A DNA stretch of 64,000 nt from positions 351 to 64,350 of the forward strand of contig JACDEB010000003.1 of the NCBI GenBank assembly GCA_013816595.1. Reading direction: 5' to 3'. This document shows, piece by piece, positions 17,391 through 37,564 of the stretch. Position 1 is the stretch's first letter. Each line of letters starts with the position of its first letter. The translations under genes and the position numbers were made by a program. The DNA is from Sphingomonas sp. (lineage in GTDB: Bacteria > Pseudomonadota > Alphaproteobacteria > Sphingomonadales > Sphingomonadaceae). The notes beneath the pieces are model-generated. The model saw only the letters and a program-made list of their open reading frames with translations. It ran no database searches and was not told the origin of the DNA.

Positions 17391-17575
17391 CGAAAGCTGC
17401 GCAGCCATCGCGGGTGGACGCTCAAGCAAATGAGCGAGAAAAGCCGTATCCCGCTGTCGACGCTGTCCAAAGTCGAGCATGACCGGCTGACGTTGACCTA
17501 TGACAAGCTCTACCAGGTCAGCCAGCGGCTCGGCATTCCAATCTCGGAATTGTTCGCGGAGTCTGGCGGAGGCGT
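17391..17575 (+). pseudogene. Truncated XRE-family HTH regulator
   Basis: Frame reads RKLRSHRGWTLKQMSEKSRIPLSTLSKVEHDRLTLTYDKLYQVSQRLGIPISELFAE. In-frame TGA at 17376, no start codon before helix 1, and no recognisable C-terminal domain. Confidence 0.7.
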
Positions 17576-17806
17576 AACCGCGGCGAACGAGCTTCGCTTG
17601 ATAGCCATTCATCTGTTGCATTCCGATTTTGCGACAGGAAAAGGCGTTCTCAACTTTATTCGAGACCAGATTAACAAAAGTGAATTTTGTTGTTGCACGA
17701 CTCTGGGACGATGCGAACCGGACGCGAAACTTATCGCGGTTTTACAGCGACATAATTAACAGTTCCAATTCGTCATCGACTCGTCGTTCCCTCAAGGAGA
17801 TCAGAT

Positions 17807-19363
17807 ATGCGCCGCTCGTCATCTATTCAGGTCGCTGTCGCGACAGCGTTAATTCTCGGGTCGAGTGCGCCGGCTTGGAGCTCGAGCCACCGCGAGGCTC
17901 CGAACATCACTGAAATGCCCAAGGTCGACAATACCGACGTCTATGCTTTTCGCAGCTACGAGCCAAACCGGGCGGGTTTTGTCACTTTGATCTCGAACTT
18001 CCAACCCGACGAAGGGCCCGGCAACGGTCCCAATTATTACACGATGGATCCCGATGCGCTGTACGAGATAATGATCGACAGCAACGGCGATGCGATGGAA
18101 GACACGACCTTCCAGTTCAAGTTCAAAAACACGCTTCGCAACGGCACTGGCCTGACCATCAACGCGGGTGGCAAGGTGCTGCCGGTCGCGCTTCGCCATC
18201 TTGGCCAAGTGACTGTTCCGAACGATCCTGATCTCGGCGAGAACGAGACTTATACGGTTACCCAGGTCAAGGGCGATCGCCGCGCCGGCACGATTTCGTC
18301 GGTTACAAAGACTGGCGGCGGCACGCTCTACAAGCCGTTCGACAATGCCGGCAACAAGTCCATTCCAAGCTATCCGACCTACTCAGACCAGTTCATCTAC
18401 AACGTGACTATTCCCGGCTGCGCCGCCGGCGGACGGGTATTCGTCGGTCAGCGCGAAGAAAATTTCGCGGTCAACCTTGGGCCGATTTTCGACCTCGTCG
18501 ACTTCGTACCAATCGAAGGCGACAGTAATTTGGTCTATGGCAATGGCTCGCCGTTCGCGGGTGGGATCACGCAGAGTGACTACAACCAGGAACTGATCAA
18601 CAAGCGCAACGTGACTAGCATTGCGATCGAGGTTCCGATTTCCTGTGTTACCGGCAACGGCAATGGGGTCATTGGCGTGTGGAGTTCCGCGAGTCTGCCG
18701 CAATCGCGCCTGCTCAAGACCAATCCGAGCTACACCGCCCCGGACACGCAAAGCGGCGCTTATGTGCAGGTTTCACGCCTCGGCATGCCGCTGGTCAACG
18801 AACTTGTGATCGGGCTTCCCAAAAAGGATTTGTTCAACGCGGTCGAGCCAACCGCCGATATTGCTCTGGCGGATTATGTGACTAATCCGACATTCCCGGA
18901 AATCCTCCAGGTATTGTTCGGAAGCGCGGCGATTGCGCCGAACAACTTCCCGCGCAACGACTTGGTCGCGCTGTTCCTCACCGGCATCGCGACGCTCAAT
19001 CAGCAGGCCGTCGTCACGCCGTCTGAAATGCAGCGGCTGAACACGAAGGTAACGCCGACCCCGTTGGCCTCGCAAAAGACGCTCGGCGTAGTGGCCGACG
19101 ATCTCGCCGGCTATCCTAACGGTCGGCGTCCCGGCGACGATACGGTAGACATTACCCTGCGCGTTGCGATGGGCCGTCTGTGCCATCCGATTCCGATCAA
19201 CGGGACGCCGACTCAGCTTGGGCTGTGCCGTCCGGCCGACGCCCCGTCCGGTCTCGTCGCCTACACCGACGGCGCTCCGCTTAACGCGAGCTATACAATG
19301 AACCGCTTCCCCTACCTCAATCCCGCGCTGCGCGGCGGCCCGCGGCCGCAAACCACGCCGTGA
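17807..19363 (+). CDS. DUF4331 family secreted protein
   Basis: Signal peptide then SSHREAP, DNTDVYAF, QVSRLGMPLVNE, GYPNGRRPGDD, FPYL; AAGGAG RBS. Confidence 0.88.
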   Translation: MRRSSSIQVAVATALILGSSAPAWSSSHREAPNITEMPKVDNTDVYAFRSYEPNRAGFVTLISNFQPDEGPGNGPNYYTMDPDALYEIMIDSNGDAMEDTTFQFKFKNTLRNGTGLTINAGGKVLPVALRHLGQVTVPNDPDLGENETYTVTQVKGDRRAGTISSVTKTGGGTLYKPFDNAGNKSIPSYPTYSDQFIYNVTIPGCAAGGRVFVGQREENFAVNLGPIFDLVDFVPIEGDSNLVYGNGSPFAGGITQSDYNQELINKRNVTSIAIEVPISCVTGNGNGVIGVWSSASLPQSRLLKTNPSYTAPDTQSGAYVQVSRLGMPLVNELVIGLPKKDLFNAVEPTADIALADYVTNPTFPEILQVLFGSAAIAPNNFPRNDLVALFLTGIATLNQQAVVTPSEMQRLNTKVTPTPLASQKTLGVVADDLAGYPNGRRPGDDTVDITLRVAMGRLCHPIPINGTPTQLGLCRPADAPSGLVAYTDGAPLNASYTMNRFPYLNPALRGGPRPQTTP

Positions 19364-19629
19364 ATCTAGCGACAGTAAAGGTCAGGCCGGGGTTAATCCT
19401 CGGCCTGACCTTGCTGGCCTTGGCAGGCGTCGCTGGCTGCAGTCGCAGTGACGAAAATGACCGCTACGGTCCGCTTGCGAATACGTTGAAACCACAGGCC
19501 GCTGATGGCGATTTCGGCGAGCGCTTCAGACAAGCTGCAAATGCTGATCCCAACGCCGAACCCTTGATAGTGAATGATGGGGATATGCCACCGGTGGACC
19601 CGACCAAGGATCCGGTTCAGGTGAATTGA
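19360..19629 (+). CDS. Small putative lipoprotein
   Basis: Hydrophobic signal with lipobox VAGC; GTGA overlap with the DUF4331 stop. Confidence 0.7.
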   Translation: MNLATVKVRPGLILGLTLLALAGVAGCSRSDENDRYGPLANTLKPQAADGDFGERFRQAANADPNAEPLIVNDGDMPPVDPTKDPVQVN

Positions 19630-19728
19630 GCGCAAAGCGCCTAGTCAATCAGCGGGATTGCGCTCAACTCGGAGAAGAAATTGCATTCGCGGAAATTCTC
19701 GGATCAAGGAAGTACTCTGACGCCGCGA

Positions 19729-20553
19729 TTACCGGGAACGGCGCGCCGGGTCATAACCGAAAGTCAGGCTGGAAAAAGTTGTTTCGAAATCGGCCTTTGC
19801 ATCGTTCGAAATAGGCTCGCTCCAAATAACGTTGATCAGCCAGGAACCAACCGCCGGAACCGTAAATGTCGCGCGCCCGGCACGGTCGGTAATTTCGCTT
19901 TCAAGCGGGCGAGCATCGAATTCCAGGCTCGTCAGCCGCACCGATGCGTTCGGCAGGCGCTTGCCCTTGTAGAGGACATAAACCGGCAACCGCCGGGCTC
20001 GATCGAGCATGTACGGATTCTTTTCGGGCACGATCTCCAGCTTCATTCCGATCGGCCGTGTAGCAAGGACGGTACTGGCCGGGGTCTGGGTGCCGACCTG
20101 GATCAAAGCCTTGGCGCGGCGAGTGTAGCGCTCACGTCCCGGCAGCGCGGTCGATTTATTCCGCGCGCGCACGGCTATTGGAAGGGTCAGTCCCTCGGCC
20201 TTGAGATAATCGTTGAAGCGCACAGCAGGAAGGTCCGAAAAGGCGGTGGAGGTCTGCATTGCAAGCACATGGAGGCCGGATCGGCCAAGCTTGCCGACGA
20301 AGTCCGCGCTTGCATCGCTGCGAACTTGGGCCCGCTGATCGGTGCGGCCGCCGACGGAGATGTCGACGAGCAGCGGAATGCGGCGGATATCATTGCCCCA
20401 GCGCTGGCGATATTGCCCGTGGCCAACCTGGAACGTCGCCGTCAGCGGCTGACCCTCGCCAACCTGAAAGCTCAAGGGCTGGATCCAGAAGTCGTGCGCC
20501 AAGGCCGGAGTGGCAGCGAAAACCAGAAGGCCGGTCAGGAAGAACTTCTTCAA
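19729..20553 (-). CDS. DUF4198 family periplasmic protein (putative Ni/Co binding)
   Basis: TTG start after AGGAG; signal ..PALA-HDFWIQP, LEIVPEKNPY, TDRAG, SSLTF. Confidence 0.85.
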   Translation of the reverse strand: MKKFFLTGLLVFAATPALAHDFWIQPLSFQVGEGQPLTATFQVGHGQYRQRWGNDIRRIPLLVDISVGGRTDQRAQVRSDASADFVGKLGRSGLHVLAMQTSTAFSDLPAVRFNDYLKAEGLTLPIAVRARNKSTALPGRERYTRRAKALIQVGTQTPASTVLATRPIGMKLEIVPEKNPYMLDRARRLPVYVLYKGKRLPNASVRLTSLEFDARPLESEITDRAGRATFTVPAVGSWLINVIWSEPISNDAKADFETTFSSLTFGYDPARRSR

Positions 20554-20674
20554 TGTTTTGCTCCTGCAATTCGCGATGACAGAATTGGCGCTTAATATGC
20601 CAAGGACCAAGATACGCAGCCTTAACGTCCCGGATGCGCATTCGGCCAATCCGTCGGCTTTGCTTGGCTTGCGG

Positions 20675-21256
20675 ATGGTTGCGGTGGCGTTGATCCTGCT
20701 GGCAGCAATGCCGAGCGCCGCCGCGGCCCATTCCGGAACCGGTCTCGCCGGGGGGTTCCTCTCCGGCGTCGAACATCCCTTGACCGGACCGGACCACATG
20801 TTGGCGATGATCGCGGTCGGGTTGTGGGGCGCGTTCCTTGGCCGACCTCTAATGATTGCGCTGCCCGTCATATTTCCCAACATGATGGCCATTGGCGCGG
20901 GCATTGGCATGGCTGGCGTTCCCCTTCCGCCGGTCGAGCTTGGGATCGCGCTGTCTGTCCTGACGCTTGGGTTGATGATCCTGTTCGCGGTTAGAGCTCC
21001 GGTCCTCGTCGCCTGCGCCGTGGTTGCAATGTTCGGCCTGTTTCACGGCTATTCGCACGGCTTGGAGTTGCCGTCCGCCGCGGATCCAATCGGCTATGCG
21101 ACTGGTTTCGTGTTGTGCACGGGGTTGCTTCACGTCTCCGGAATCGCGCTGGGGTCGCTGCGCACGCTTCGCTACGGCAATGCCGGCTTGCGCGTTGGTG
21201 GCGGAGTAATTGCGGCCTGCGGTCTTTTCTTCCTGGTGCGGGTGCAAGGCTTGTGA
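20675..21256 (+). CDS. HupE/UreJ family membrane protein
   Basis: AAAH, GFLSGVEHPLTGPDHMLAMIAVGLW, FHGYSHGLE; start uncertain (20597 possible). Confidence 0.92.
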   Translation: MVAVALILLAAMPSAAAAHSGTGLAGGFLSGVEHPLTGPDHMLAMIAVGLWGAFLGRPLMIALPVIFPNMMAIGAGIGMAGVPLPPVELGIALSVLTLGLMILFAVRAPVLVACAVVAMFGLFHGYSHGLELPSAADPIGYATGFVLCTGLLHVSGIALGSLRTLRYGNAGLRVGGGVIAACGLFFLVRVQGL

Positions 21257-21735
21257 ACGCCGGCATCCTGCCAATTGGCCTGCTGTTCGTTGCGTTCGGG
21301 CTCACATTGTCGTTCGCATCGCTTCGCGACGCGCTACTCGGCGCCATTTGTCTCGCGGTGACGGCTCTGCTGGTGGCGTCGCTGAATCTGTCGACGAGCG
21401 CACTTGAACCGGTGTTCGTCGGCTTGTGGGTCAGTTGCATTGCAACGGTCGCGCTGATGCATGTGTCGCGCCATCTCAAGACTGGACTGGCAGTCGCCGC
21501 GGGCCTCAACGCGGGGGCGTGGACTGGAGCCTTGGCCGCGATTACCCCGCTTCGTCCGATGCTGCTTTATGCGTTGCCGATCCTGCTTCTTGTCGTTCCC
21601 GGCCAATGGCTAGTCGGACGAGGGTATGGAATCGCATTGAAGGTCGTCGGTAGCTGGGTCGTCGCTGTCGCTATTTTGGCGATTTTCGTATCGCTGATGC
21701 CCACGCCGGGCTACAAGCCGGATCATATGCAATGA
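21253..21735 (+). CDS. Hypothetical polytopic membrane protein
   Basis: About 5 hydrophobic segments; 4-nt overlaps with both neighbours (GTGA, ATGA). Confidence 0.75.
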   Translation: MNAGILPIGLLFVAFGLTLSFASLRDALLGAICLAVTALLVASLNLSTSALEPVFVGLWVSCIATVALMHVSRHLKTGLAVAAGLNAGAWTGALAAITPLRPMLLYALPILLLVVPGQWLVGRGYGIALKVVGSWVVAVAILAIFVSLMPTPGYKPDHMQ

Positions 21736-22349
21736 CCAATAAAACACATCTTTTCATGGGTTTGGTTTTGCTCGCCGCAGCTTCGCCGGCAGTGAGCCAA
21801 GTGATCGAGATCGATTCGGATGGGAATTCCCAAACCTTCGACGGGCCGACGGTATTCAGCAGCGACCAAGTGGCGCCCATTGGCCGCCCCAGCGCGGTGC
21901 CGACCGAAAAATTCGATATCGACCGGACGATCGCCGAAGCCAGTCGAGTCCACGGCATCGACCGTGCCTTGCTGCAAGCGGTGGCGCAGCAGGAATCGGG
22001 CTTCAGAATGGCTGCGATCAGCCCGAAGGGCGCACAGGGCGTGATGCAATTAATGCCCGCCACAGCGGCGCAGCTCGGCGTTAGGATCGACAATGCGAGC
22101 GATAATATCCACGGCGGCGCGATCTATCTTCGTCAGCAAATCGACCGCTTCGGCAGCGTGCCTTTGGCGCTCGCCGCCTATAATGCCGGACCAGGAGCGG
22201 TGATCCGTTACAGCGGAATCCCGCCCTTTCGCGAAACGCGCGATTATGTGTCGCGGATCATGGCGCGCTGGAAACCCACGGTCATGATCCGACCGGCCCC
22301 GCCGCGAACTTTGGTCGTAATCAACCCCAATGTCATCGAGGTTCCCTAA
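21732..22349 (+). CDS. virB1: Lytic transglycosylase (VirB1-like)
   Basis: QESG, SPKGAQGVMQLMP, LAAYNAG, ETRDYV; directly upstream of virB2. Confidence 0.88.
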   Translation: MTNKTHLFMGLVLLAAASPAVSQVIEIDSDGNSQTFDGPTVFSSDQVAPIGRPSAVPTEKFDIDRTIAEASRVHGIDRALLQAVAQQESGFRMAAISPKGAQGVMQLMPATAAQLGVRIDNASDNIHGGAIYLRQQIDRFGSVPLALAAYNAGPGAVIRYSGIPPFRETRDYVSRIMARWKPTVMIRPAPPRTLVVINPNVIEVP

Positions 22350-22350
22350 A

Positions 22351-22650
22351 ATGATCAAACGCACCTTCGCGATTTTGTCAGTGGCGCTGGCTGCCCCGGC
22401 CTGGGCGCAATCCGCAGCGCCCGATCCGGCCGGTTCAGGGCCGATTATCGGTGCGGTCAACTGGCTCCAGGGGACGCTGCTCGGCAATGTCGCGACCGCA
22501 GTTGCGGTGATTGCGGTCGCCGCCATCGGTTTCATGATGCTGACCGGGCGAATGAACTGGAAATATGGTGCGACCGTCGTGGTCGGACTGTTCATCCTGT
22601 TCGGAGCGGCGTCGATCGTCGGCGGCATTCGATCCGTGGCGGGCGGCTGA
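22351..22650 (+). CDS. virB2: VirB2/TrbC pilin
   Basis: Signal AWAQ, two hydrophobic helices, VAVIAVAAIGFMMLTGR, ILFGAASIV. Confidence 0.9.
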   Translation: MIKRTFAILSVALAAPAWAQSAAPDPAGSGPIIGAVNWLQGTLLGNVATAVAVIAVAAIGFMMLTGRMNWKYGATVVVGLFILFGAASIVGGIRSVAGG

Positions 22651-22652
22651 TC

Positions 22653-22928
22653 ATGGCCGGCGACCGACTGTTCAGGGCATTGACCCGGCCGCAAATGGTG
22701 GCCGGCGTGACCTACCCTTTTTTCGTCCTTAACGGGATCATCGCCGCCGAGCTGTTTCTGATCACAAAGAGTTTTTACGCGCTTCTGCCGTCGCTGTTTA
22801 TCCACGCACTCGGCTATGCCGCCCATCTTCGCGATCCCAACGTGATGCAAGTGTGGACGACCAAGTTGCGCCGCGTTCCGCGCGTTCCCAACCGCAAGCT
22901 ATGGGGGGCTAATGTCTATTCGCCGTAA
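22653..22928 (+). CDS. virB3: VirB3 family protein
   Basis: LFRALTRPQMVAGV, WGANVYSP. Confidence 0.9.
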   Translation: MAGDRLFRALTRPQMVAGVTYPFFVLNGIIAAELFLITKSFYALLPSLFIHALGYAAHLRDPNVMQVWTTKLRRVPRVPNRKLWGANVYSP

Positions 22929-25278
22929 TCAGGTCGCCCAACGCGAGAAGCATGTCGGCGATCATTTGCCCTATCTCGCGCAGGTGGACGAACATACGAT
23001 CGTCACTCGCGATCGGCTGGCGATGCAGGTGATCCGGCTCGAGGGCTTGCCGTTCGAGACCATCGACGAGGTCCAGCTCGAAATACGAAAGATCGCCCGC
23101 GACGCCATGCTCCAGGCCGTCGGCTCGGCCCGATTTGCGCTGGTTCATCACGTCATTCGACGAATTGTCGATCCGGCGCTCGAAGGAGATTTCGATGATC
23201 CGTTCAGCGCCGCCCTCGACAAGGCGTGGTCGGAGCGCCTGGCGACACGCAAGCTTTACGTCAACGACCTCTATTTGACGATCATCGTTCGACCGCTCGC
23301 GGGCCGCGCCGGCGCTGCGGAACGCATGCTCGACCTAGTCGGATCGCGGCGCGCCCGAAGTGGTGAGGATCGGGCCGATTTGCGGCAGCTCAACCAAGCG
23401 CGCGAGGCCGTGCTCGCGTCCCTGGAACCCTATAATCCGACACTTTTGGGCACCTATGAGATTCCTAGCGGACTGGCGTCCGAACCGGCGGAGTTCCTGG
23501 CGACGCTGATCAACGGAACCTCATCGCCGGTGCTTCTGCCGCAGGGCGAGCTGGCCCACGCAATCGCTCGGCGGCGGGTTAGTTTCGGCGCGGATGCGAT
23601 CGAATTCGGGCCGCTCGACGGCGATCCATCGCAAGTGGCGGCGATCCTGTCGGTCAAGGATTACCCCTCGGAAACCCGCGCTGGAATGCTCGACGATCTG
23701 TATCGCTTGCCGTTCGAAATGGTCGTCACGCAGAGCTTTGCGGTGGTTGACCGGGGACCGGCGCTCGAACGGATGGATCTCGCCCTTCGGCGCATGCGTT
23801 CCGCCGACGATGCCGCCGTCTCCCTTCGCTCGGAACTGGCGCTGGCCAAGGACGATGTCGCCGCCGGCCGCTCGTTGTTCGGCGAACATCATTTGACCGT
23901 CCTGCTCAAGGCGGCGACTTTGGCCGAACTCGACATCACGGTGGGCGAAGTCCAGGCGACATTATCGGAGGCGGGCTTCGTCGCCGTCCGCGAGGAGCTT
24001 GGCCTGGAAGCGGCGTTTTGGGCCCAGTTCCCGGGAAATTTCAATTATATCGCCAGGCGTGCGCTCGTTTCCTCGGCCAATTTCGCAGGCTTCGCCAGCG
24101 CGCATAATTTCCCGGTCGGCCAGGCTAGCGGCAATCACTGGGGAGATGCCGTTACCTTGTTCGAAACGACGTCCGCCGGGCCCTATTTCTTCAACTTCCA
24201 TCGCGGCGATCTGGGCAATTTCACGATCATCGGCCCGTCCGGATCGGGCAAGACCGTCGTCCTCGGCTTCCTCTTGGCCCAAGCCCGCCGCTTCGCCCCG
24301 CGAACAATCTTTTTCGACAAGGATCGTGGAGCGGAGATTTTTCTTCGAGCGATCGGCGGAATTTACGACACCCTCAGGCCCGGCAACCCCACTCGGCTCA
24401 ATCCGCTGGCGCTTCCCGATACGCCTGGCAATCGCCGCTTCCTCACCGACTGGGTGGCGAAAATGGTGACTGGCGAGGGCGACCCGCCGACGGTCGAGGA
24501 AGCGAGCTGGATCTCCGACGCGATCGATGCGAATTATGCCAGCCCGCCGGCCAATCGCCGGCTGCGCCACCTTGCGGAGCTATTCCGCGGCCGTGGCCGG
24601 GCGTCGGGCAACGATCTCTACGCCCGGCTTGCGCCATGGCATTCAGAAGGCGCGCACGCCTGGCTGTTCGACAACGCAGTCGATGGTCTTGAGCTCGATG
24701 CCGACACCATCGGTTTCGACATGACCGCGATCCTCGATCAGCCGGCGCTGCGATCTCCAACGATGCTGTATCTGTTCCATCGGGTCGAAGAACGGCTGGA
24801 TGGCAAGCCGACCATCATCGTCGTCGATGAAGGGTGGAAGGCCCTTGATGATGAAGTTTTCGTCGCCCGCATCCGCGATTGGGAGAAAACCATCCGGAAG
24901 CGCGGCGGAATCGTCGGTTTCGCGACCCAATCGGCGAGCGACGCTCTGGAAAGCAAGATCGCCTCCGCAATCATCGAACAGGCGGGAACGCAGATCTTCA
25001 TGGCCAATGCTTCGGCGCAGGCGACCGATTATATTGAAGGCTTCGGACTGACCCAGCATGAATTCGAGCTCGTCAGATCGATCCCGGAAACCGCTCGCGC
25101 GTTCCTGGTCAAGCATGGCGCCGAAAGCGTCGTAGTTCGGCTAAACCTGGCGTCGGAACCCGATTTGCTCACCGTCCTGTCGGGGCGGGAGCGCACGGTT
25201 CGACTGCTCGACGGCATCCGCGACAAGGTCGGCGACGCGCCAGATGCGTGGCTGCCGCGGCTGTTGGAGGTCGCATGA
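22912..25278 (+). CDS. virB4: VirB4 ATPase
   Basis: FWAQFPGN, Walker A GPSGSGKT, FDKDRG, Walker B VVDEGW, FATQS. Confidence 0.96.
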   Translation: MSIRRNQVAQREKHVGDHLPYLAQVDEHTIVTRDRLAMQVIRLEGLPFETIDEVQLEIRKIARDAMLQAVGSARFALVHHVIRRIVDPALEGDFDDPFSAALDKAWSERLATRKLYVNDLYLTIIVRPLAGRAGAAERMLDLVGSRRARSGEDRADLRQLNQAREAVLASLEPYNPTLLGTYEIPSGLASEPAEFLATLINGTSSPVLLPQGELAHAIARRRVSFGADAIEFGPLDGDPSQVAAILSVKDYPSETRAGMLDDLYRLPFEMVVTQSFAVVDRGPALERMDLALRRMRSADDAAVSLRSELALAKDDVAAGRSLFGEHHLTVLLKAATLAELDITVGEVQATLSEAGFVAVREELGLEAAFWAQFPGNFNYIARRALVSSANFAGFASAHNFPVGQASGNHWGDAVTLFETTSAGPYFFNFHRGDLGNFTIIGPSGSGKTVVLGFLLAQARRFAPRTIFFDKDRGAEIFLRAIGGIYDTLRPGNPTRLNPLALPDTPGNRRFLTDWVAKMVTGEGDPPTVEEASWISDAIDANYASPPANRRLRHLAELFRGRGRASGNDLYARLAPWHSEGAHAWLFDNAVDGLELDADTIGFDMTAILDQPALRSPTMLYLFHRVEERLDGKPTIIVVDEGWKALDDEVFVARIRDWEKTIRKRGGIVGFATQSASDALESKIASAIIEQAGTQIFMANASAQATDYIEGFGLTQHEFELVRSIPETARAFLVKHGAESVVVRLNLASEPDLLTVLSGRERTVRLLDGIRDKVGDAPDAWLPRLLEVA

Positions 25279-26456
25279 TGCAGTCATTCTGCAATCCTTC
25301 CGCTGCAGATCGCTTCGCGGCCCGCTTGCTGGCCGACACCGACTGCCAAGCCAATGGCCTGGTCGAGCGCGGTTATGCCGCGCTTGCTCAGCCGGGCGGC
25401 ACAGGCTCGATCGCGCTGACCGGGTTGATGGTCATCGCGGTCGCATTCTTTGGCTACCGGCTGCTCCTCGGTCGCGGCTTGGCGCTCCGCGATGCGGTTG
25501 TTCTGACCGTCAAGCTCGGCATCGTCCTGATGCTCGCCTCGTCGTGGGAAAGCTGGCAGGCGCTGGCCTATAACGGTCTTGCCCGCGCACCCACCCAGAT
25601 CGCGGGCGACGTACTGACCGGGATCGGTGCCGCGGATCCGATCGAAAGCCTTCAGCGAATGCTCGACGGACTCGCGCAGGCGGCGGTCGGTTACCGGATG
25701 CGGGCGGGAATCGCGTCGCCATTGGTCGGCGGCCCGCCGGCGGCCGCGGCCGTACTCAACCTTTCGTCGGTGTTCCTGACCCTGTCGATTGTTGGCATAT
25801 TGGTTGCGGCAAGAGTCGTGCTTGCGGTCCTTCTGGCGATTGCCCCCGCAATGGCCGGACTGATGCTCTTCACCGGCACGCGCGGGATGGTCCAAGGATG
25901 GCTTGGGGCAATTGCCGCGGCGGCAATCGCACCGCTGTTCGTGCTGGTTCTGGCCGCGGTCGAATTCGCCATCATGGATCCAATGCTCGGGCGGCTTCTG
26001 ACCGAACAGGCGGCCGGGCGATATGAGGACGGAGCGGTCATGCCGCTCGGGCTCGTCACGGTGGTTTTCATGATCGCAACCGCGTTCGCACTTCGTTCTG
26101 GCGCCCAAATCGCACGCGGCATTCGCTTGCCGAGTATGGTCGGCAATGGTGCTGTGGCCCAGGAGCCAGCCGCGGGCGTCGGCCAAGACCGCTTCCGGGT
26201 TGAAAACACTGCCGTATCGGCGTCGACTCAATCGGTAACACGGGCGCTCGAAAGCATGGCCCGGCGCGAGACTCCGCCGAGCGGTTCAGCGCAGGTTTCA
26301 AGTCGCGGCTTAACGAGGAGCCGTGACGGCAGGGCCGCACCTGGAACAGCCAATATTGGCAGCGCGTCGCTCGCTAGCATTCCGGGGCGGGCCTCAGCGC
26401 GACGGGCACAGCCGATTCCTCGGCATTCGCGGTCGGTCAGGCGGAGGGACGCATGA
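25275..26456 (+). CDS. virB6: VirB6/TrbL family protein
   Basis: Polytopic inner-membrane protein between virB4 and virB8; LLAIAP..LF..TRG..QGW. Confidence 0.85.
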   Translation: MMQSFCNPSAADRFAARLLADTDCQANGLVERGYAALAQPGGTGSIALTGLMVIAVAFFGYRLLLGRGLALRDAVVLTVKLGIVLMLASSWESWQALAYNGLARAPTQIAGDVLTGIGAADPIESLQRMLDGLAQAAVGYRMRAGIASPLVGGPPAAAAVLNLSSVFLTLSIVGILVAARVVLAVLLAIAPAMAGLMLFTGTRGMVQGWLGAIAAAAIAPLFVLVLAAVEFAIMDPMLGRLLTEQAAGRYEDGAVMPLGLVTVVFMIATAFALRSGAQIARGIRLPSMVGNGAVAQEPAAGVGQDRFRVENTAVSASTQSVTRALESMARRETPPSGSAQVSSRGLTRSRDGRAAPGTANIGSASLASIPGRASARRAQPIPRHSRSVRRRDA

Positions 26457-27151
26457 ACGATCCAGGCGAATTCAATCCGATCCAGGACAAGGATCATTAC
26501 TTCGCCTCGGCGCGAAGCTGGGCCGAAGGTCAGTCGGCGGTGATTTCGCGGGAAGCGCGAATCGCTTGGCGAGTTGCTGCCGGCGCTTCGGCGATCGCGC
26601 TGATTCTGGCGATCGCATTGCTCCTCCTGGTGCCGCTGAAGAGCGTCCAGCCTTATGTTCTTACGGTCGATCGGCAGACCGGCGCGGTCGAGCCTGCACT
26701 GACCGTCCAGCAAGGTCGGTTGAGCCAGAACGAAGCCGTCATCCAGGCCGAGCTAGCCGGCTATGTCATCGCGCGCGAAACGTTCGATGCGACCGATCTC
26801 GCCCGCCAATATCACCGCGTCCAGTTGCTGTCCGCTCCACCGGTGGCGCGCGCCTATGTCGCCCAACTGGCGGCCAATAATCCGGAAAGCCCGCTTCGGA
26901 CGCTCAACCAGGGCGACACCGTGTCGATCCAAATTCGCAGTGTTTCGCTGATCGGCGATGGCAGCGGCCTGGTTCGTTTCACCGCCACTCGGACCGCGTC
27001 CGGGGCGCCGAGCGGGTCGGTAGAAAATTATGTTGCAGCGATCGCGTTCGGGTTCAGCGGACGCCCGCTGCGAGCGGCTGATCGTTACGACAATCCACTC
27101 GGCTTCCAGGTCACGCGCTATCGCCGCGATGCCGAGGGAGTTGGCGGATGA
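26453..27151 (+). CDS. virB8: VirB8 family protein
   Basis: Single TM, PLKSVQPYVLTVDRQTG, YVIARE, NPLGFQVTRYR. Confidence 0.93.
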   Translation: MNDPGEFNPIQDKDHYFASARSWAEGQSAVISREARIAWRVAAGASAIALILAIALLLLVPLKSVQPYVLTVDRQTGAVEPALTVQQGRLSQNEAVIQAELAGYVIARETFDATDLARQYHRVQLLSAPPVARAYVAQLAANNPESPLRTLNQGDTVSIQIRSVSLIGDGSGLVRFTATRTASGAPSGSVENYVAAIAFGFSGRPLRAADRYDNPLGFQVTRYRRDAEGVGG

Positions 27152-27831
27152 GACCCCTCCTCCCGATCCTGCTGATATTATTGTCCGCTGCTACCTCACC
27201 GCAGCCCGGACCGGTTGATCCGCACATCCAGTCAGTCCTCTTCGACTCCGATCAGGTCGTCGAGTTGCGCGGCGCGCTGGGGTGGCAGATCATGCTCGAA
27301 TTCGGTTCGGACGAGCGGATCGAGAATGTTTCGATCGGCGACGCGCTCGCCTGGCAGGTGACCCCGAACAAGAAAGCCAGGAACCTGTTCCTGAAGCCGC
27401 TTCTCAAGACTGCATCGACCAATATGACGGTGGTCACCGATCGCCGGCAATATTCTTTCCAGCTCGAAACCGGGCCGCGTTCGGCATTTACGCCGTGGGT
27501 TGTGCGGTTCGATTATCCCCATGAAATCGTCGCAGCGGTCGAGGAGCCCTTGCCACCGCCGCCACCGCCGCTCAATTTCGCTTATTCGTCGAAAGGATCT
27601 GCCGCGCTTCGCCCCGCCCGGGTCTGGGACGACGGGTTGATGACCTATTTCGAATTTTCCGAGAACGTCCCGATACCCGCGATTTTCGCCGGGCAAGGAC
27701 GCAACGAGACGCTGGTCAACTCAAGCGTTCGCGGACATGTCGTCGTGGTCCAGCAAACCGGCGGCAGCTTCACCATCCGGTCGGGCGAGCAGTTCGCCAT
27801 GGTCACGCCGGGCCTGGGCAAGACGCGATGA
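27148..27831 (+). CDS. virB9: VirB9/TrbG family protein
   Basis: ERIENVSIGD, LFLKP, TNMTVVTDRRQY, VWDDGLMTYF. Confidence 0.93.
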   Translation: MRPLLPILLILLSAATSPQPGPVDPHIQSVLFDSDQVVELRGALGWQIMLEFGSDERIENVSIGDALAWQVTPNKKARNLFLKPLLKTASTNMTVVTDRRQYSFQLETGPRSAFTPWVVRFDYPHEIVAAVEEPLPPPPPPLNFAYSSKGSAALRPARVWDDGLMTYFEFSENVPIPAIFAGQGRNETLVNSSVRGHVVVVQQTGGSFTIRSGEQFAMVTPGLGKTR

Positions 27832-29033
27832 ACGAAACGATCATCGTCAAACGTCCAGTCGTTGCCCGCGAAGCTCGCCAGATCCCGCTTACTGCGGCGG
27901 CGATCGTGTTCGGCTTGCTGGGAATCGGTGTCTTTTCGTTTCTGTCCGAGGCCCGCGCCGCGCAGGAGGAGCGCTCGACCCAGCTGCCGCCCTTGCCGCC
28001 CAATCCGGCACCGCCAGCGCCCGGCGAAGCGCCGGTCGGCGCTGCGGCAATTGCCACTCAACCCACACCCGACGGACCGGGATTCTTCGATCCCAACCGG
28101 GCGGCGCCGGTCACATTGCAGGCTAGCGGCTATCCTACGGTCCCGGTTCGCGACTTCAGCGGCGCTCTCGGCAATTCGCCGCCGCGTCCGCCGGCAGCCG
28201 ACAGCATGCGCGCTCGGCTCAATGCCCCAGCGCTGGTCGTCGACCTTGCGCAGAATAACCCACAACGGGTGGCTCCGTCGTTCCAGCAGAGCAGCGGCGT
28301 TAGCGAAGGCGGCGGAACCGTTAGCCAGACGACGACGACGGTGGCACTGCCTCCGTCGGGCGGGATCGCTGCAGTGGGCGCCGCCCCCCGCGATCAGAGC
28401 CTGTCGGACACCGAGCAATTCTCCCAGCGGGTCGGCAATTCCGAGATCGAAGTGGCTCACGCAAGCAGGATGGCGCGACTGGACCGGCTTGTCCCGCAAG
28501 GCGCCGTGGTCGGGGCGACGATGGAAACCGCGCTCAATTCCGACCTTCCCGGATATGCCCGAGCGATTGTTCAGCGCAACGTCTACAGCTTCGACGGGTC
28601 GGCGGTGATGATTCCGGCTGGAAGCCGGGTTATCGGCCAGTATAAATCAGGGGTCGCTCAGGGTGCCTCGCGCGTGTTCATCCTGTGGACGCGGTTGATC
28701 CGTCCGGATGGGGTGACGATTGACCTTGCCTCGCCGGCAACCGACGAACTCGGCCGCGGCGGCCTGTCCGGAAAGGTAAATCGTCATTTTCTCGAACGGT
28801 TCGGCGGAGCCATTCTGACGTCGGTCCTGAGCGGCGGCATCACCGCTGCTTCGGCTGCGCTTTCGGGCGGATCCACGGTCTTAGTCGGCTCGGCCAGCCA
28901 GGCATCCTCGCTCGCCGGGCAGGCGTCGCAATCCAACGATATTCCGCCGACAATCACCACGCGGCAGGGCGCCGGCGTGAGAATTTTTGTTGCCCGCGAC
29001 CTTGATTTCTCCGCCGTCGGCCCGGCCCAATGA
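27828..29033 (+). CDS. virB10: VirB10/TrbI family protein
   Basis: TM plus Pro-rich linker, ETALNSDLPG, IPAGSRVIG, WTRLIRPDG, VNRHFLERFG, FVARDLDFS. Confidence 0.95.
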   Translation: MNETIIVKRPVVAREARQIPLTAAAIVFGLLGIGVFSFLSEARAAQEERSTQLPPLPPNPAPPAPGEAPVGAAAIATQPTPDGPGFFDPNRAAPVTLQASGYPTVPVRDFSGALGNSPPRPPAADSMRARLNAPALVVDLAQNNPQRVAPSFQQSSGVSEGGGTVSQTTTTVALPPSGGIAAVGAAPRDQSLSDTEQFSQRVGNSEIEVAHASRMARLDRLVPQGAVVGATMETALNSDLPGYARAIVQRNVYSFDGSAVMIPAGSRVIGQYKSGVAQGASRVFILWTRLIRPDGVTIDLASPATDELGRGGLSGKVNRHFLERFGGAILTSVLSGGITAASAALSGGSTVLVGSASQASSLAGQASQSNDIPPTITTRQGAGVRIFVARDLDFSAVGPAQ

Positions 29034-30025
29034 ACTCCACCGCGCAACGGGTCTATCTCGATGCCTTCCTGGCTCCACTGGCCGACTTTCTGTCGCGGCA
29101 GGATGTCACCGATATCTATATCAATCGTCCCGGCGAAGTGTGGCTGGAGACGGCGTCGGGGACCGAGCGGCATGATGTTCCGTCGCTCGACGACGGTGCG
29201 TTATGGCGGCTTGCGCGCCAGATTGCGGCGGCATCGGACCAGGGCATAAATCGCGAGCATCCGCTCCTTGCGGCGGTCCTACCCGACGGTGCTCGAGCCC
29301 AGTTTTGCGCGCCGCCGGCGACGCGCGGCGACATGGTCGTGGCGATACGCAAGCACAGCATGCCAGACCTCCGGCTCGCCGATTATTTAAAGTCCGGTGC
29401 GTTCGACCGGTTAAGTCAAATGGCAACAGCGCGTGAAGCCGGTGAAGCGGCCTTGGCGGCGCAATTGGATAGCGGCGACACGGTTGGTTTCCTGGCTAAT
29501 GCTGTGCGGCAGCGCAAGACCATCGTCATTTCGGGCGGCACCGGCACAGGAAAAACCACGTTCCTCAACGCGCTCCTCAAGGAAGCGCCCGACGACGAGC
29601 GGTTTGTCGTCATCGAGGATACCCCCGAGATCCAGCTTCATCACGAAAATGCGGTGGGCCTGGTCGCAGTTCGCGGTCGCTTGGGTGAAGCGGCGGTTTC
29701 GCCGGCCGATCTGCTCGAAGCCGCGCTTCGGTTACGCCCCGACCGGATCATCATGGGCGAGATTCGCGGCGCCGAAGCGATCAGCTGGCTGAGGGCGGTT
29801 GGCACTGGTCATCCAGGATCGATTACCACCGTCCACGCCAATTCACCCGACGGCGCGATCGAGCAACTGGCGATCATGTCACTCACGGCCGGAACCGAAC
29901 TCGGCCGAGCCGAACTGGTCGATTACGTCCGAGCGACAGTGGACATCTTTGTCCAGCTTGGTCGGGACGGCGCCGACCGAATCGTGACCGACATCCGCTA
30001 TGATCGTCGAAACCTGCCCAGCTGA
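29030..30025 (+). CDS. virB11: VirB11 ATPase
   Basis: INRPGEVW, Walker A GGTGTGKTT, IEDTPE, LRLRPDRIIMGEIRG, GHPGSITTVHA. Confidence 0.96.
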   Translation: MNSTAQRVYLDAFLAPLADFLSRQDVTDIYINRPGEVWLETASGTERHDVPSLDDGALWRLARQIAAASDQGINREHPLLAAVLPDGARAQFCAPPATRGDMVVAIRKHSMPDLRLADYLKSGAFDRLSQMATAREAGEAALAAQLDSGDTVGFLANAVRQRKTIVISGGTGTGKTTFLNALLKEAPDDERFVVIEDTPEIQLHHENAVGLVAVRGRLGEAAVSPADLLEAALRLRPDRIIMGEIRGAEAISWLRAVGTGHPGSITTVHANSPDGAIEQLAIMSLTAGTELGRAELVDYVRATVDIFVQLGRDGADRIVTDIRYDRRNLPS

Positions 30026-30042: not shown

Positions 30043-30708
30043 TCAACCCAGCCAATCCGGCAGGTCCCAAAAGTTCGTCGGCTCAGGCTCCAGCAGCGCA
30101 TTCCACGACCACTCGCCCGAGCCGAAGACTAGGAAGAGCGTTCGGTCGCCGTTGGGTATCGGCACCAGGCGGGGTCCTAAAATTGGCGAGGAGAGGCACT
30201 CCGGCGGGGCCATTTGCAGCGTTTCGGTAACATTCGTTCGGACCGCCTTAAGCGGACCTTCCGGTTCCGCTGTGGCAGCGCTCCAGTCGACATTCCAGAT
30301 TACGATGGCGTCGGCGATGGACCGGGTTTCGAGCGGCGCATGGACGATTGCGTCCACCGCTTTTGGGTCACTCACAACTGCCAACGCGACAGAATCCAGA
30401 ACCGAACAATAGTCCGTCGATAGTCCTAAGAGCGCTTGTTCCTCAGCCGAGAAGGGTTCGAATGCAGGTAAGGGATCGGTCAGGGAATTGGCGGACTTGA
30501 TCGTGGGTAACTTGATCGACCGGACATGGCTTGTCTGGGGGGCAATTGAAACCGAGCTCATTCCCGCATCTTTTTGCACTTTGGGCCGGTGTGTGTGGAA
30601 TGAAATCAGTGCCAGTAATGCGGCGAGGTTTAGCGCCGCTCCCAAACCAAGGGAAGCAAACCGCTGTTTGCGAGAAAGCGAGGTGACACTGTCAGATGTA
30701 CGACTCAC
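30043..30708 (-). CDS. Hypothetical protein with N-terminal membrane anchor
   Basis: 221-aa ORF with one TM (LGLGAALNLAALLALISF); downstream of the Crp gene, converging on virB11. Confidence 0.65.
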   Translation of the reverse strand: MSRTSDSVTSLSRKQRFASLGLGAALNLAALLALISFHTHRPKVQKDAGMSSVSIAPQTSHVRSIKLPTIKSANSLTDPLPAFEPFSAEEQALLGLSTDYCSVLDSVALAVVSDPKAVDAIVHAPLETRSIADAIVIWNVDWSAATAEPEGPLKAVRTNVTETLQMAPPECLSSPILGPRLVPIPNGDRTLFLVFGSGEWSWNALLEPEPTNFWDLPDWLG

Positions 30709-30780: not shown

Positions 30781-31653
30781 TCAACTCACAAGATCGAGAG
30801 AATTCAAATACTGTCCCTCGAAATTCGCGGTGGCGCACAGCCGTCGCATGTCGAGAATGTTTAGCCGTCGGCGATCAAGCAGGATCACTCCGTCGCGGCG
30901 AAGGCGCTGGAGGGTGCGGTTGATGTGGACGGTGGTTAAGCCGATTGTATCGGCGAGCATCACCTGGTTGACTGGAAAATCGAACCAGCCGTCCTCGCTG
31001 ATCTTTCCGACCTTTTTCAATCTAGCTGCCATTTCGCATAGGAAATGACTGAGCTTTTGTTCGGCCTTCGACTGGCCGGTATTGAGCAGCCATTCGCGCA
31101 TGATGACCGTGTCCAGATGGGCCGAGAGTTGCAGCCCGCGCGTCACGCTCACGCTGGTCGCCACCGAATCGACGAATTTGCGCAGCGGGAATTTGGCAAT
31201 TCGAGAAGGGACTAGAACCGAGACATTATGGTCGGCCCGATCCAATATCGTGAAACTGAGGTCGCAGATATCGCCGGGGACCAAGTAACCGAGGATCTGG
31301 CGATGCCCACCGGGCAGCAATTTGAAGCGATAGGCGAGGCCACTCAAGACGATGAAAATGCAGCCTGGGTTCGATCCTTCCTGGATCAGGTTGTGGTTGG
31401 CCTCGTAGCTCCTCGAATTTCGGCAAAAGCCCTCCAGCATTTCCACTTCGTTGACGTCGAGTTTCACGAACGTCTTCAGTTTCGCGGCGAGCGGTCCCCA
31501 GATGCCCGCGTCAGGTCGATAGTCGACGTTCGCATTAGCGGCATTGGTCCGATCGCCGGCCAACCGAATATCATCGCTCTCAGCGAACGACGCGCCGATC
31601 CGCGGCGCTGACGAAGCGACAAGCAACGACGTCGAACTTAGGTAGCGCAGCAT
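30781..31653 (-). CDS. Crp/Fnr family transcriptional regulator
   Basis: LIQEG, SGLAYRFK..GHRQI..PGD, HTH NQVMLADTIGLTTVHINRTLQRLR; start uncertain. Confidence 0.9.
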   Translation of the reverse strand: MLRYLSSTSLLVASSAPRIGASFAESDDIRLAGDRTNAANANVDYRPDAGIWGPLAAKLKTFVKLDVNEVEMLEGFCRNSRSYEANHNLIQEGSNPGCIFIVLSGLAYRFKLLPGGHRQILGYLVPGDICDLSFTILDRADHNVSVLVPSRIAKFPLRKFVDSVATSVSVTRGLQLSAHLDTVIMREWLLNTGQSKAEQKLSHFLCEMAARLKKVGKISEDGWFDFPVNQVMLADTIGLTTVHINRTLQRLRRDGVILLDRRRLNILDMRRLCATANFEGQYLNSLDLVS

Positions 31654-31907
31654 ACCCTTCGCCTCGCAATTCCAGGAAAACAAATGGAATTAAAGGGCTA
31701 GATACGATGCTGAATGCATCTCGGATGCAGCTTCAGCGTTTCAATTCGCCGCGGTCTATGGGCCGGCTTCGAGCTTTTCATCGAGAACGACTGTGTCGGG
31801 GCAATGAAGGAGAGTGGGCTCAGCTTAAATCGCCATCCCTTTTGGATGCCAATCCGGAGCGGCCGGTCTACTACGCTTATCTCTCTTCTTATCTCGTCGT
31901 GACTGAC

Positions 31908-32307: not shown

Positions 32308-33606
32308 CTATAACTTCATCTCTCCCGCTTCTCTGGCTTGTTCCGCGTCTTCGACTTCCTTTGAGAACATGCGCCAGCTGCCGCGGACCTGCGGGATGTG
32401 GCGCTCTAGAATTAGGCTGTCGATCTCGCCGTCGGGCGGCATTCGAAACTCTGGTCGCACGCTGCATGGCCGATCAGCGGCCTCCCTGATGCGCTTGCTT
32501 GATCCGACAATCTTCTCATGCTGCGCCGGTGTCAGTGCGGGCATCGGCTTCCTCGGCTTACGCCAGTCTGGCCGGAATGTGTCCCACAGCGTCGCGCATA
32601 TTCCGTCGCTGTCCGTGGGCGGCCGGCTTGCGAGGAGGAACAGGCCCTTGCCCTTCTCGTCGTCCGGCAGCGCCAGAAAGTGCGCGTTTAGCGAGGCGAG
32701 ATCCTGCTTGAGGTCAGGTCCCCATAAGAAGCGCTGTTTCGGGCCGAGGAATTGTTCCGCCGTCGTGCGGTGCAGGCGGTCCCCCGACACGAACAGATCG
32801 GTGAACGGCAGATAGTAGAGGTACGCGATGTCGATCCGGTTGCTGGCGCGCTGGTCGGAGATAATGCCGTTCGACAGCGCGAGGTAGAAGTAAAGGTCGA
32901 TCTCGAGGCAATGCGCGGCGAAGGGTGCATGCTCGCGCAAGGGCTTTGATCCAGCTCGGCGCCACGCAGACACAACGTCCGGTAGGGACCGGGGCGGCAT
33001 TCCCAGCACACTATGCGCGATGTGAAGAGACTTATAGCTTTGGCCAGGGCTGTCGACGATCGCCTTGGCGAGGTCGCGCGCCGCGACGTGGTTGCGCGGC
33101 CTGCCCTCTTTCCGGAGCATCGCCTTGAACGCCTGCGCAATTCCAGGGAGGTCAAAATTACCGAGTGCGGCCCGCCAAGCATGGGCAGCGATGCGCTCGA
33201 CCTCGAGGAAACGGCCTTGCTGCCACCGCTCGAACGCCTCGGCCTCGGGCGACTTCTTGTAGACGATCCCGACTTTACCCTCCACGCGCACGGGAATGCC
33301 CCCGGCGACCACCGGTCGGCCGTCCATGCCGACTGTTCCTCCGAAGAGCTCGTCCAAAACAAGGCGGTTGTGGAACGTGTTCATGTAGCTGTGGGCGACC
33401 GGCGTTCGCTCGGCTAGGCCGCCGACGATCTGCGCGGGCGTGCGTCCCCCCTCCGGCTCCTTGGCGAGGTCGGCCATCGTCTCCGCTAAGAACAGCGGTG
33501 AGACGACGCATGAGAACATTTGGTCGAGCATGGCGGCCTCATCGACGCTTAGACTCTGCAAGAACGATTTATCGAAGAGGAGCAGCGGTCCCATTGGGGT
33601 TGGCAT
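32308..33606 (-). CDS. Hypothetical protein, PIN-like fold suspected
   Basis: 432-aa ORF; N-terminal LLFDKSFL, helix ETMADL, late DIAYLYYLP..FVSGDRLH; acidic residues spaced as in PIN nucleases. Confidence 0.7.
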   Translation of the reverse strand: MPTPMGPLLLFDKSFLQSLSVDEAAMLDQMFSCVVSPLFLAETMADLAKEPEGGRTPAQIVGGLAERTPVAHSYMNTFHNRLVLDELFGGTVGMDGRPVVAGGIPVRVEGKVGIVYKKSPEAEAFERWQQGRFLEVERIAAHAWRAALGNFDLPGIAQAFKAMLRKEGRPRNHVAARDLAKAIVDSPGQSYKSLHIAHSVLGMPPRSLPDVVSAWRRAGSKPLREHAPFAAHCLEIDLYFYLALSNGIISDQRASNRIDIAYLYYLPFTDLFVSGDRLHRTTAEQFLGPKQRFLWGPDLKQDLASLNAHFLALPDDEKGKGLFLLASRPPTDSDGICATLWDTFRPDWRKPRKPMPALTPAQHEKIVGSSKRIREAADRPCSVRPEFRMPPDGEIDSLILERHIPQVRGSWRMFSKEVEDAEQAREAGEMKL

Positions 33607-35351: not shown

Positions 35352-35721
35352 GGGCACAGGCTACAAGCGGCCGCCGGTCGCGTCCCGGTGGAAGAAGGGC
35401 CAATCCGGCAATCCCAGCGGCCGCAAGCGCGGTAAGCTGAATCTGCGTACCGATCTCATCGCCGAGCTCGAGGAGGTCATCCAGATCAACGAGGGCGGCT
35501 CGGCCCGTCGAATAACGAAGCAGCGAGCATTGCTGAAGTCGCTCGCGGCTCGGGGCATCCAGGGCGACGCACGCGCGGCAAATCTGATCCTCAGTCTGAT
35601 CTCCCGGCTCCTAGAGCCAGATGAGCAATCGGCGATCCCCGAGGAAATGGGCCCGGAAGATAAGGCCATCCTCGACGCCTATTTGACCAAACATCTCAAG
35701 AATAAGGATTCATCGAAATGA
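35344..35721 (+). CDS. DUF5681 domain protein (small-terminase position)
   Basis: GYKRPP..RWKKGQSGNPSGR signature; overlaps both the MTase and terL genes. Confidence 0.85.
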   Translation: MTEGTGYKRPPVASRWKKGQSGNPSGRKRGKLNLRTDLIAELEEVIQINEGGSARRITKQRALLKSLAARGIQGDARAANLILSLISRLLEPDEQSAIPEEMGPEDKAILDAYLTKHLKNKDSSK

Positions 35722-37190: not shown

Positions 37191-37205
37191 GTGATCGCAA
37201 TTGCG

Positions 37206-37241
37206 CCCGGAGCGAGACGGAAGCCCGTCTGTCGCTCCGGG
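37206..37241. terminator. Hairpin between convergent terL and XRE genes
   Basis: CCCGGAGCGA-GACGG-AAGC-CCGTC-TG-TCGCTCCGGG. Confidence 0.65.
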
Positions 37242-37242
37242 T

Positions 37243-37446: not shown

Positions 37447-37464
37447 CGCGGCATGAAGCTCGAT

Positions 37465-37549: not shown

Positions 37550-37564
37550 ACATGGGGACGTCGA

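Follow-up and report, generated by a model that had tools for sequence, protein, structure and literature searches.

A stretch of 64,000 nucleotides from Sphingomonas sp. (assembly GCA_013816595.1, contig JACDEB010000003.1; "the window" throughout) carries a VirB-type type IV secretion system (T4SS) whose operon begins with the gene for a HupE/UreJ-type metal permease. A DUF4331 protein with a Sec signal peptide, a small lipoprotein and a DUF4198 protein are encoded directly upstream. The stretch lies on the 67-kb contig of a metagenome-assembled genome (MAG) of 1.91 Mb, 110 contigs and 63% GC that is 83% complete. Its nearest relatives are Sphingomicrobium MAGs, with a VirB4 91% identical at locus L028, and a soil metagenome is the only sequencing run that contains nearly the whole stretch. 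The region from 17.8 to 31.7 kb is best explained as one 14-kb accessory island made of two coupled modules, a cassette and a VirB machine (Table 1). The conserved unit extends past position 30025, where the initial annotation had ended it, and adds two minus-strand genes, unk221 and a Crp/FNR-family regulator.

Table 1. Features of the island and its surroundings in the window.
Feature	Positions	Strand	Product	Profile match
XRE-type ORF	17430-17759		short helix-turn-helix protein	HTH_19, E 1e-4
DUF4331	17807-19363	+	518 aa, Sec signal peptide	PF14224, 450 bits
lipoprotein	19360-19629	+	89 aa, lipobox LAGVAG-C, conserved C-terminal peptide	no Pfam family
DUF4198	19729-20553	-	TTG start, predicted periplasmic metal-binding protein	PF10670, 103 bits
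hupE	20675-21256	+	HupE/UreJ-type metal permease	PF04955, 176 bits
mem160	21253-21735	+	160-aa polytopic membrane protein	no Pfam match
virB1	21732-22349	+	SLT lytic transglycosylase	Pfam SLT, 85 bits
virB2	22330-22650	+	pilin	Pfam TrbC/VirB2, 66.5 bits
virB3	22653-22928	+		Pfam VirB3, 83.6 bits
virB4	22912-25278	+	ATPase	TIGR00929, 732 bits (cut-off 643); PF03135 CagE_TrbE_VirB, 139 bits
virB6	25275-26456	+	TrbL/VirB6	Pfam TrbL, 81.5 bits
virB8	26453-27151	+		Pfam VirB8, 166 bits
virB9	27148-27831	+		Pfam CagX, 168 bits
virB10	27828-29033	+		Pfam TrbI, 188 bits
virB11	29030-30025	+	ATPase	Pfam T2SSE, 118 bits
unk221	30043-30708	-	221 aa, N-terminal membrane anchor, periplasmic domain	no Pfam/NCBIfam match
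Crp/FNR	30781-31683	-	Crp/FNR-family regulator	Pfam cNMP_binding and HTH_Crp_2
432-aa ORF	32308-33606	-	high GC at third codon positions	no Pfam/NCBIfam match
phage-like remnant	33972-38330		the four genes below
methylase	33972-35351		ParB-N/N6-N4 DNA methylase
DUF5681	35275-35721
terminase	35718-37190		terminase large subunit
zinc-ribbon protein	37929-38330		superinfection-immunity/zinc-ribbon protein
cupredoxin-like gene	60266-60655
RHS gene	61171-62817		RHS-repeat protein

Pfam and NCBIfam profiles bear out the gene names of the initial annotation (DUF4331, DUF4198, HupE_UreJ and virB1-2-3-4-6-8-9-10-11). Its chain of overlapping genes from hupE through a membrane protein to virB11 also stands, with the junctions read directly in the sequence. 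GTGA overlaps join DUF4331 to the lipoprotein gene and hupE to mem160. ATGA overlaps join mem160 to virB1, virB4 to virB6, and each gene from virB6 through virB8, virB9 and virB10 to virB11. The virB1/virB2 and virB3/virB4 pairs overlap by 17 to 20 nt, and a 2-nt gap separates virB2 from virB3. From hupE on, the genes thus form one translationally coupled chain, and hupE, mem160 and virB1 to virB11 are predicted to be co-transcribed. The listed start of the hupE open reading frame (ORF), at 20510, is probably over-extended, the true start being the ATG at 20675. DUF4331, the lipoprotein and DUF4198 do lie upstream as had been claimed, but DUF4198 does not share their direction. It is oriented toward the DUF4331-lipoprotein pair and away from hupE, with a 121-bp spacer between the two divergent genes, and so is not part of the hupE transcript. 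A plus-strand ORF across the DUF4198 stretch has no Pfam match. An Rfam scan of the window returned no riboswitch or other family, and nothing conserved was found upstream of DUF4331 and hupE when k-mers and TGGC-N-GCCA palindromes were examined as a shared operator. In the Sphingomicrobium-like subclade the Crp/FNR gene accompanies the island, with homologues at the island edge in L002, L004-L006, L015, L026, L028 and L030. Directly upstream of DUF4331 sits the short XRE-type ORF, which may be a truncated regulator.

The machine is a P-type T4SS (VirB-like, mating-pair formation type T) and therefore of a known kind. Its core proteins VirB2, VirB3, VirB6, VirB8, VirB9, VirB10 and VirB11 all score above the Pfam gathering cut-offs, and their genes are contiguous, with overlaps, in one operon. 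The nearest solved homologues of VirB10 are TrwE of R388 (7o3j, E 7e-34) and TraF of pKM101 (3jqo), and the nearest solved VirB8 structure is TrwG of R388 (7o41). Within the operon, mature VirB2 is conserved best: in loci such as L016, L018, L023 and L029 it is 90-96% identical and VirB4 70-84%, which is unusual for a pilin.

Genes for conjugation were not recognized with this machine. Among the roughly 60 ORFs of the window, the coupling-protein, relaxase and integrase families gave no Pfam match, as the initial annotation had stated; relaxase families were searched in these window ORFs only. The type IV coupling protein (T4CP) families PF02534, PF10412 and PF12696 have no true match in the MAG itself. 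They have none either in G002 (a Sandarakinorhabdus glacialis isolate) or in G157 (99% complete), two genomes whose sole VirB4 is that of this T4SS. PF10412 and PF12696 are also without a match in the complete single-contig genome G261. PF10412 gave signals at the P-loop level only, and VirB11 itself accounts for one of these. Where relatives have T4CPs, they also carry extra VirB4 genes or other elements. Caulobacter vibrioides, examined as a control, has VirB4, no VirD4 (PF02534) match and no DUF4331, and at L025 and L031 the virB operon lies amid housekeeping genes. These whole-genome profile searches support the earlier suggestion that the T4SS is non-conjugative, as judged from gene content. 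A machine without a coupling protein would be unable to take up cytoplasmic substrates in the usual way.

The claim that virB5 and virB7 are missing holds in part. Neither VirB5 (PF07996) nor VirB7 has a Pfam match in the island, and the operon has no spare ORF for either; both families are so poorly conserved that absence is unproven. A genome-wide search with PF07996 returned no match anywhere, controls included, and is hence uninformative.

Conserved linkage between cassette and T4SS, which the initial annotation had set as a test of its proposal, holds across two orders in shuffled gene orders. All island proteins were mapped onto 80 VirB4 loci with 10-kb flanks, and the VirB4 tree gives three clades. 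Clade A (30 rows, Sphingomonadales) has the cassette in 25 rows; of the other five, four come from truncated contigs and only L025 truly lacks it. In clade B (11 rows, mainly Caulobacter and Phenylobacterium of the Caulobacterales) seven rows have it. Together this makes 32 of 41 rows, or about 32 of 37 without the truncated contigs, and besides this genome about 35 others show the pairing. VirB4 is about 62% identical between the Sphingomonadales and Caulobacterales clades. The sister clade C (40 rows) has no VirB1 and no cassette in any row.

At least five types of cassette gene order occur. The first is that of the window. In the second, mem160-hupE-DUF4198 is inverted upstream of DUF4331 (L020-L022). 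In the third, hupE-mem160 is divergent and DUF4198 leads into virB1 (L045, L061, L068, L075 and L087). The fourth has hupE-mem160-DUF4198 after virB11 on the same strand (L054, L071), and the fifth is split (L012, L070). All types have one or more cassette genes that adjoin virB1 or virB11 and run in the same direction as it, and in about 20 clade A loci mem160 and virB1 abut or lie within a few tens of bases of each other.

A T4SS without coupling protein and relaxase could be the remnant of a conjugative element, with the metal cassette as its cargo. The distribution is sporadic enough for that: the island is rare, with DUF4331 present in 7 of the 300 genomes sampled from the order and in none of the 15 from its own genus. 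Its flanks differ even among close relatives. Same-genus genomes have in common only the amidohydrolase of the upstream flank and not the genes around it, so the insertion site is not definable. Phage-like genes follow just downstream in the window. Against this, all nine virB genes are intact and tightly coupled in about 40 genomes at 60-91% identity, and near-complete genomes have no T4CP. The window has no integrase, no tRNA and no repeat-bounded ends, and relatives that have the island do not share the phage-like genes. We consider a conjugative remnant highly improbable.

The cassette, consisting of DUF4331, the lipoprotein, DUF4198, HupE, mem160 and unk221, is proposed to serve metal capture and import. 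DUF4331 covers positions 1-419 of the 421 of its profile and belongs to a family of 4,602 cluster representatives (50% clustering, E<=1e-3), on which a literature search found nothing. Directly after the signal peptide the family conserves A-S-S-H-R-E-A-P, with the variants A-L-D-H and A-R-D-H. These variants make cleavage directly before the histidine unlikely and point to a mature end of the form X-X-His, so that the predicted N-terminus here is SSHREAP. An X-X-His N-terminus is the amino-terminal Cu(II)- and Ni(II)-binding (ATCUN) pattern, and an ATCUN-like end is the most likely one for mature DUF4331 on this alignment. An AlphaFold2 model from a 55-sequence alignment (pLDDT 88, pTM 0.88) shows a beta-sandwich plus a helical region; it replaces an earlier model from 28 close sequences with pLDDT 50. 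Fold searches with it yielded no homologue; they returned at best E 7e-3 against the PDB (Foldseek) and Z 6.5 in the wide VIA search, the latter to generic beta-sandwiches, and the modeled fold may be new.

The lipoprotein gene lies directly 3' of DUF4331 in 30 of 34 loci checked, which agrees with the initial annotation's view of it as the DUF4331 partner. These include the T4SS-free loci L082 and L083. We had also considered the lipoprotein as a VirB7, and its presence in T4SS-free loci rejects that assignment in favor of a DUF4331 partner. A complex prediction for DUF4331 with the lipoprotein gave a median score of 0.23, which counts neither way.

In DUF4198 the signal peptide is followed by HDFW, and the ALA-HDFW motif is found here and in about 30 homologues. 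Proteins of this family are periplasmic, begin with a histidine and bind either Ni (Kd 18 nM) or Zn (PMC12537917, PMC12663993). HupE likewise has a signal peptide, with the mature N-terminus HSGTGLAGGF. All three Sec-exported cassette proteins have an N-terminal histidine. Six HupE histidines (H20, H35, H42, H125, H129 and H154) are invariant in an alignment of 22 sequences. HupE is cited as a Ni permease (Brito 2010, as cited in PMC12537917), and HupE/UreJ-2 permeases bear fused N-terminal-His "anglerase" domains (PMC12537917).

The two remaining proteins have no assigned family. Mem160 has an invariant C-terminal PGYxPDHM motif and is kept beside hupE in about 30 loci, T4SS-free ones included; by this neighborhood it belongs to the cassette and not to the T4SS. 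A relationship to HupE as a paralogue was suggested by an Atlas lead of 0.86 and is unsupported, with an hhalign probability of 0.4%. Homologues of unk221 adjoin DUF4331 in about 20 loci, again including T4SS-free ones, and usually lie directly upstream of it. An Atlas search with unk221 returned hypothetical clusters only. Its identification as a VirB5 or a TonB-like protein is unsupported: there was no family match, and the TonB row in the Atlas had a TM of 0.25.

DUF4331 keeps similar company elsewhere. DUF4331 occurs in 11 of 400 Pseudomonadota genomes taken as an unbiased sample. Its neighbors include a HupE_UreJ_2 permease and a TPR-like protein in 9 of the 11 and an extracytoplasmic function (ECF) sigma factor in 10. 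The metagenomic contigs L097 and L098 likewise place DUF4331 beside a HupE-type permease. The partnership with HupE is thus general, which points to metal capture. An ECF sigma factor with a ChrR-type (Cupin_7) anti-sigma factor is very often found beside DUF4331 (L091, L098, L085, L103, L106-L116). This suggests that the family has its own regulon, responsive to stress or metal.

The closest DUF4331 relatives outside the T4SS clade, at 45-55% identity, adjoin complete type II secretion system (T2SS) clusters that are dedicated to them. For P0005 (L099/L100) the order is GspE, M, G, I, C and D, then TPR, HupE_UreJ_2, PilD and DUF4331. For P0010 (L103/L104) the T2SS is divergent from DUF4331, with a TonB receptor and DUF4198 nearby. 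GspJ and GspK lie by the DUF4331 of P0004. The T2SS-linked loci of this group include L084/L085 and L096. In G069 and G077, which belong to another sphingomonad family, the GspG adjoining DUF4331 is an extra copy beside the housekeeping GspG. In the DUF4331 tree the T4SS-linked proteins, with the cassette-only ones nested within, group together (support 0.997), and the T2SS-linked P0005 is the sister of this clade (support 0.998); the placement of P0004 is weak (0.105). A T2SS carries folded, Sec-delivered proteins from the periplasm across the outer membrane. That two unrelated outer-membrane-crossing machines accompany one substrate family is the strongest argument for export of DUF4331, and it lends new support to the export that the initial annotation had proposed.

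From what is observed, namely the gene content, the operon fusion, the lack of a T4CP, the conserved linkage and the T2SS parallel, we infer a two-step route. DUF4331 would be exported by Sec and its signal peptide cut two residues before the invariant histidine, which would leave an ATCUN-like X-X-His site for Cu or Ni. Passage of periplasmic DUF4331 through the outer membrane would then fall to the VirB machine, in the way that Ptl handles pertussis toxin, a job that dedicated T2SS clusters apparently do for the sister DUF4331 proteins. Captured metal, of the Ni/Co/Zn/Cu class, would be handed to periplasmic DUF4198 and enter through HupE, possibly with mem160. DUF4331 would in this way be a metal scavenger that feeds DUF4198 and HupE.

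Several observations weigh against this export model. The complete genomes G281 and G297, of one genus, carry the cassette without any VirB4 (in the order unk221-DUF4331-lipoprotein-DUF4198-hupE-mem160), and the cassette is a unit of its own. Conversely, L025, L032, L034 and L049 keep an intact virB operon, have no cassette in its vicinity and lack any PF14224 match genome-wide, and beside the intact virB genes of L031 there are only decayed DUF4331-TPR-HupE2 fragments about 10 kb away. A T4SS that persists without DUF4331, as in Caulobacter vibrioides, has some value beyond DUF4331. In the unbiased sample none of the 11 DUF4331 loci has a T2SS or T4SS within 9 kb, so DUF4331 needs no adjacent exporter. 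The related genomes that carry the island are not independent samples. A T2SS is found elsewhere in both cassette-only genomes, and GspG is missing in 5 of 8 T4SS-linked genomes, but the background rate of T2SS in the order is 50%, which makes this complementarity a trend and not significant. The lipoprotein partner could tether DUF4331 to the outer membrane and keep it cell-bound. Because the modules are separable, most DUF4331 proteins have no nearby exporter and the carriers are related, we hold the export model tentatively, as the favored reading but one that falls a little short of being probable.

The same observations can be read as two mechanistically separate modules, co-inherited and co-regulated, with the cassette acting as an ordinary periplasm-to-cytoplasm metal importer. 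The T4SS would then build an adhesion or biofilm pilus or deliver an unrecognized periplasmic substrate, and the shared operon would reflect a common condition such as metal limitation or low oxygen sensed by Crp/FNR, whose gene accompanies the island. That each module is found alone (the cassette at L082 and L083, the T4SS at the five loci just named), that no secretion system stood near DUF4331 in the unbiased sample and that VirB2 is so highly conserved, as would fit a pilus with its own conserved partner, all speak for it. It leaves unexplained why a T2SS stands beside DUF4331 in at least three independent contexts and why the T4SS-linked and T2SS-linked DUF4331 clades are sisters. The linkage has moreover outlasted at least five rearrangements across two orders, which is beyond the usual demand of co-regulation. 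We regard separate modules as the main rival, doubtful though deserving real weight.

The export model allows a further step. A VirD4-less VirB clade of free-living Sphingomonadales and Caulobacterales may have taken over the export of Sec-delivered DUF4331 from a dedicated T2SS, with DUF4331 as a protein metallophore that has an ATCUN-like N-terminus. This fuller scenario appears possible on a somewhat more tentative footing.

The direction of transport could also be reversed. The outer-membrane core of the T4SS, energized through a TonB-like VirB10, would then gate a metal or metal-protein complex inward and replace a TonB-dependent receptor, which is missing from the cassette but stands beside DUF4198 in the relative at L103. 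DNA uptake by ComB is a precedent for uptake by a T4SS, and ComB10 (2bhv, E 7e-16) is a detectable relative of VirB10. Yet the T2SS in the parallel association is export-only and points outward, and cassette-only genomes do without the T4SS. We know of no T4SS that imports metals. An inward channel is very unlikely.

The export model has its closest counterpart in the Ptl system of Bordetella pertussis, the one well-studied T4SS that carries Sec-delivered proteins out of the periplasm, and the two share several traits. Ptl is a VirB-type T4SS without VirD4 and without VirB5, and its substrate, which has Sec signal peptides and passes into the periplasm before export, is encoded by genes that directly precede those for secretion. 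Here there is likewise no coupling protein, and the Sec-signal DUF4331 is encoded 2.4 kb upstream of virB1; VirB5, without a profile match among the island ORFs, may be a further shared absence. The two differ in that VirB1 is present here and absent from Ptl, while Ptl has a VirB7 (PtlI) and none is recognizable here. The Ptl substrate is an AB5 toxin, while the candidate substrate here is a single 518-aa protein of no known fold. The host here is a free-living soil bacterium, and the operon also encodes a metal permease. The sequence-level kinship shown with Ptl is that of the general VirB families.

Other T4SSs resemble the machine in part. R388 Trw and pKM101 Tra have the same core gene set and order, but depend on a relaxase and on a coupling protein (TrwB) and also possess VirB5 and VirB7; none of the four was found here. 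Brucella VirB is likewise alphaproteobacterial, chromosomal and without VirD4, and some Brucella effectors have Sec signals; it keeps VirB5, VirB7 and VirB12, serves intracellular parasitism and has no link to a metal cassette. ComB-type DNA uptake in Helicobacter has no VirD4, VirB11 or VirB1 and works with ComEC, whereas VirB11 and VirB1 are present here. Kinship with ComB is general only, and the system does not belong to that class.

On the cassette side, the T2SS-linked DUF4331 modules have the same substrate family, a HupE-type permease and/or DUF4198 nearby and an outer-membrane-crossing machine alongside. Their partners are a TPR-like protein, HupE_UreJ_2 and an ECF sigma factor with a ChrR-type anti-sigma factor, where the T4SS-linked ones have DUF4198, HupE_UreJ, mem160, unk221 and Crp. 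Export of a metal-binding protein that improves uptake is familiar from type VI secretion systems (Zn, Mn and Cu in Yersinia, Burkholderia and Pseudomonas). Those use another machine, secrete in one step from the cytoplasm and take the metal back through TonB-dependent receptors. In the DUF4198 (IsDUF4198, Zcp) and "anglerase"-HupE/UreJ-2 systems, N-terminal-His periplasmic proteins feed a HupE-type permease, much as proposed for the cassette (PMC12537917, PMC12663993). These systems have not been described with DUF4331, mem160, unk221 or a secretion system (PMC12537917, PMC12663993).

A literature search on HupE with a T4SS, on Caulobacter virB4 and on T4SSs in metal acquisition found nothing that matches this system. 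Four features are undescribed: a T4SS clade of free-living bacteria that has no coupling protein, the fusion of its operon with a metal permease gene, the candidacy of DUF4331 as substrate and the apparent T2SS/T4SS swap. To our knowledge, almost all studied T4SSs serve conjugation or attack on hosts or other bacteria, and those without a coupling protein are known from a few pathogens only. Here such a T4SS occurs widely among environmental Alphaproteobacteria, shares an operon with a metal permease and has a concrete candidate substrate. If the fuller scenario is true, this would be the first T4SS that serves to acquire trace metals, and one secretion machine would have displaced another in handling the same substrate. 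DUF4331 gains a first functional context, with HupE-type permeases, ECF sigma factors and, in some lineages, a dedicated T2SS or T4SS. The role of orphan chromosomal VirB systems also becomes directly testable in culturable strains.

Some loci of the VirB4 survey merit separate mention. Clade C (L033, L035-L044 and others), with VirB4 about 62-65% identical, often has a second VirB2-like gene after virB11 and may be another orphan T4SS type. One copy, L088 (NZ_CP098765.1 1-23501), belongs to a plasmid of Sphingomonas aerolata whose type is given as "non-mobilizable"; an RHS protein is encoded close by, and no VirD4 is annotated within the 23 kb shown. Locus L032 (CALRKY020000006.1) carries a sphingomonad-type virB operon in a MAG labeled Synechococcus sp., with a layout near-identical to that of L031, and the label is probably a binning error. 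The decayed fragments near L031 form locus L117 (G307:C9:76000-92000), where DUF4331 fragments, a TPR remnant and a HupE_UreJ_2 gene lie about 10 kb from the virB genes.

In the window the upstream flank of the island is made up of ordinary chromosomal genes, with an amidohydrolase, a Na/H exchanger, MFS and SSF transporters, GH2, GH53 and a TonB-dependent receptor. Downstream, the 432-aa ORF lies between the Crp/FNR gene and the small phage-like remnant, which is followed by a two-component system and an RND pump. Near the window end are a cupredoxin-like gene and an RHS-repeat protein gene.

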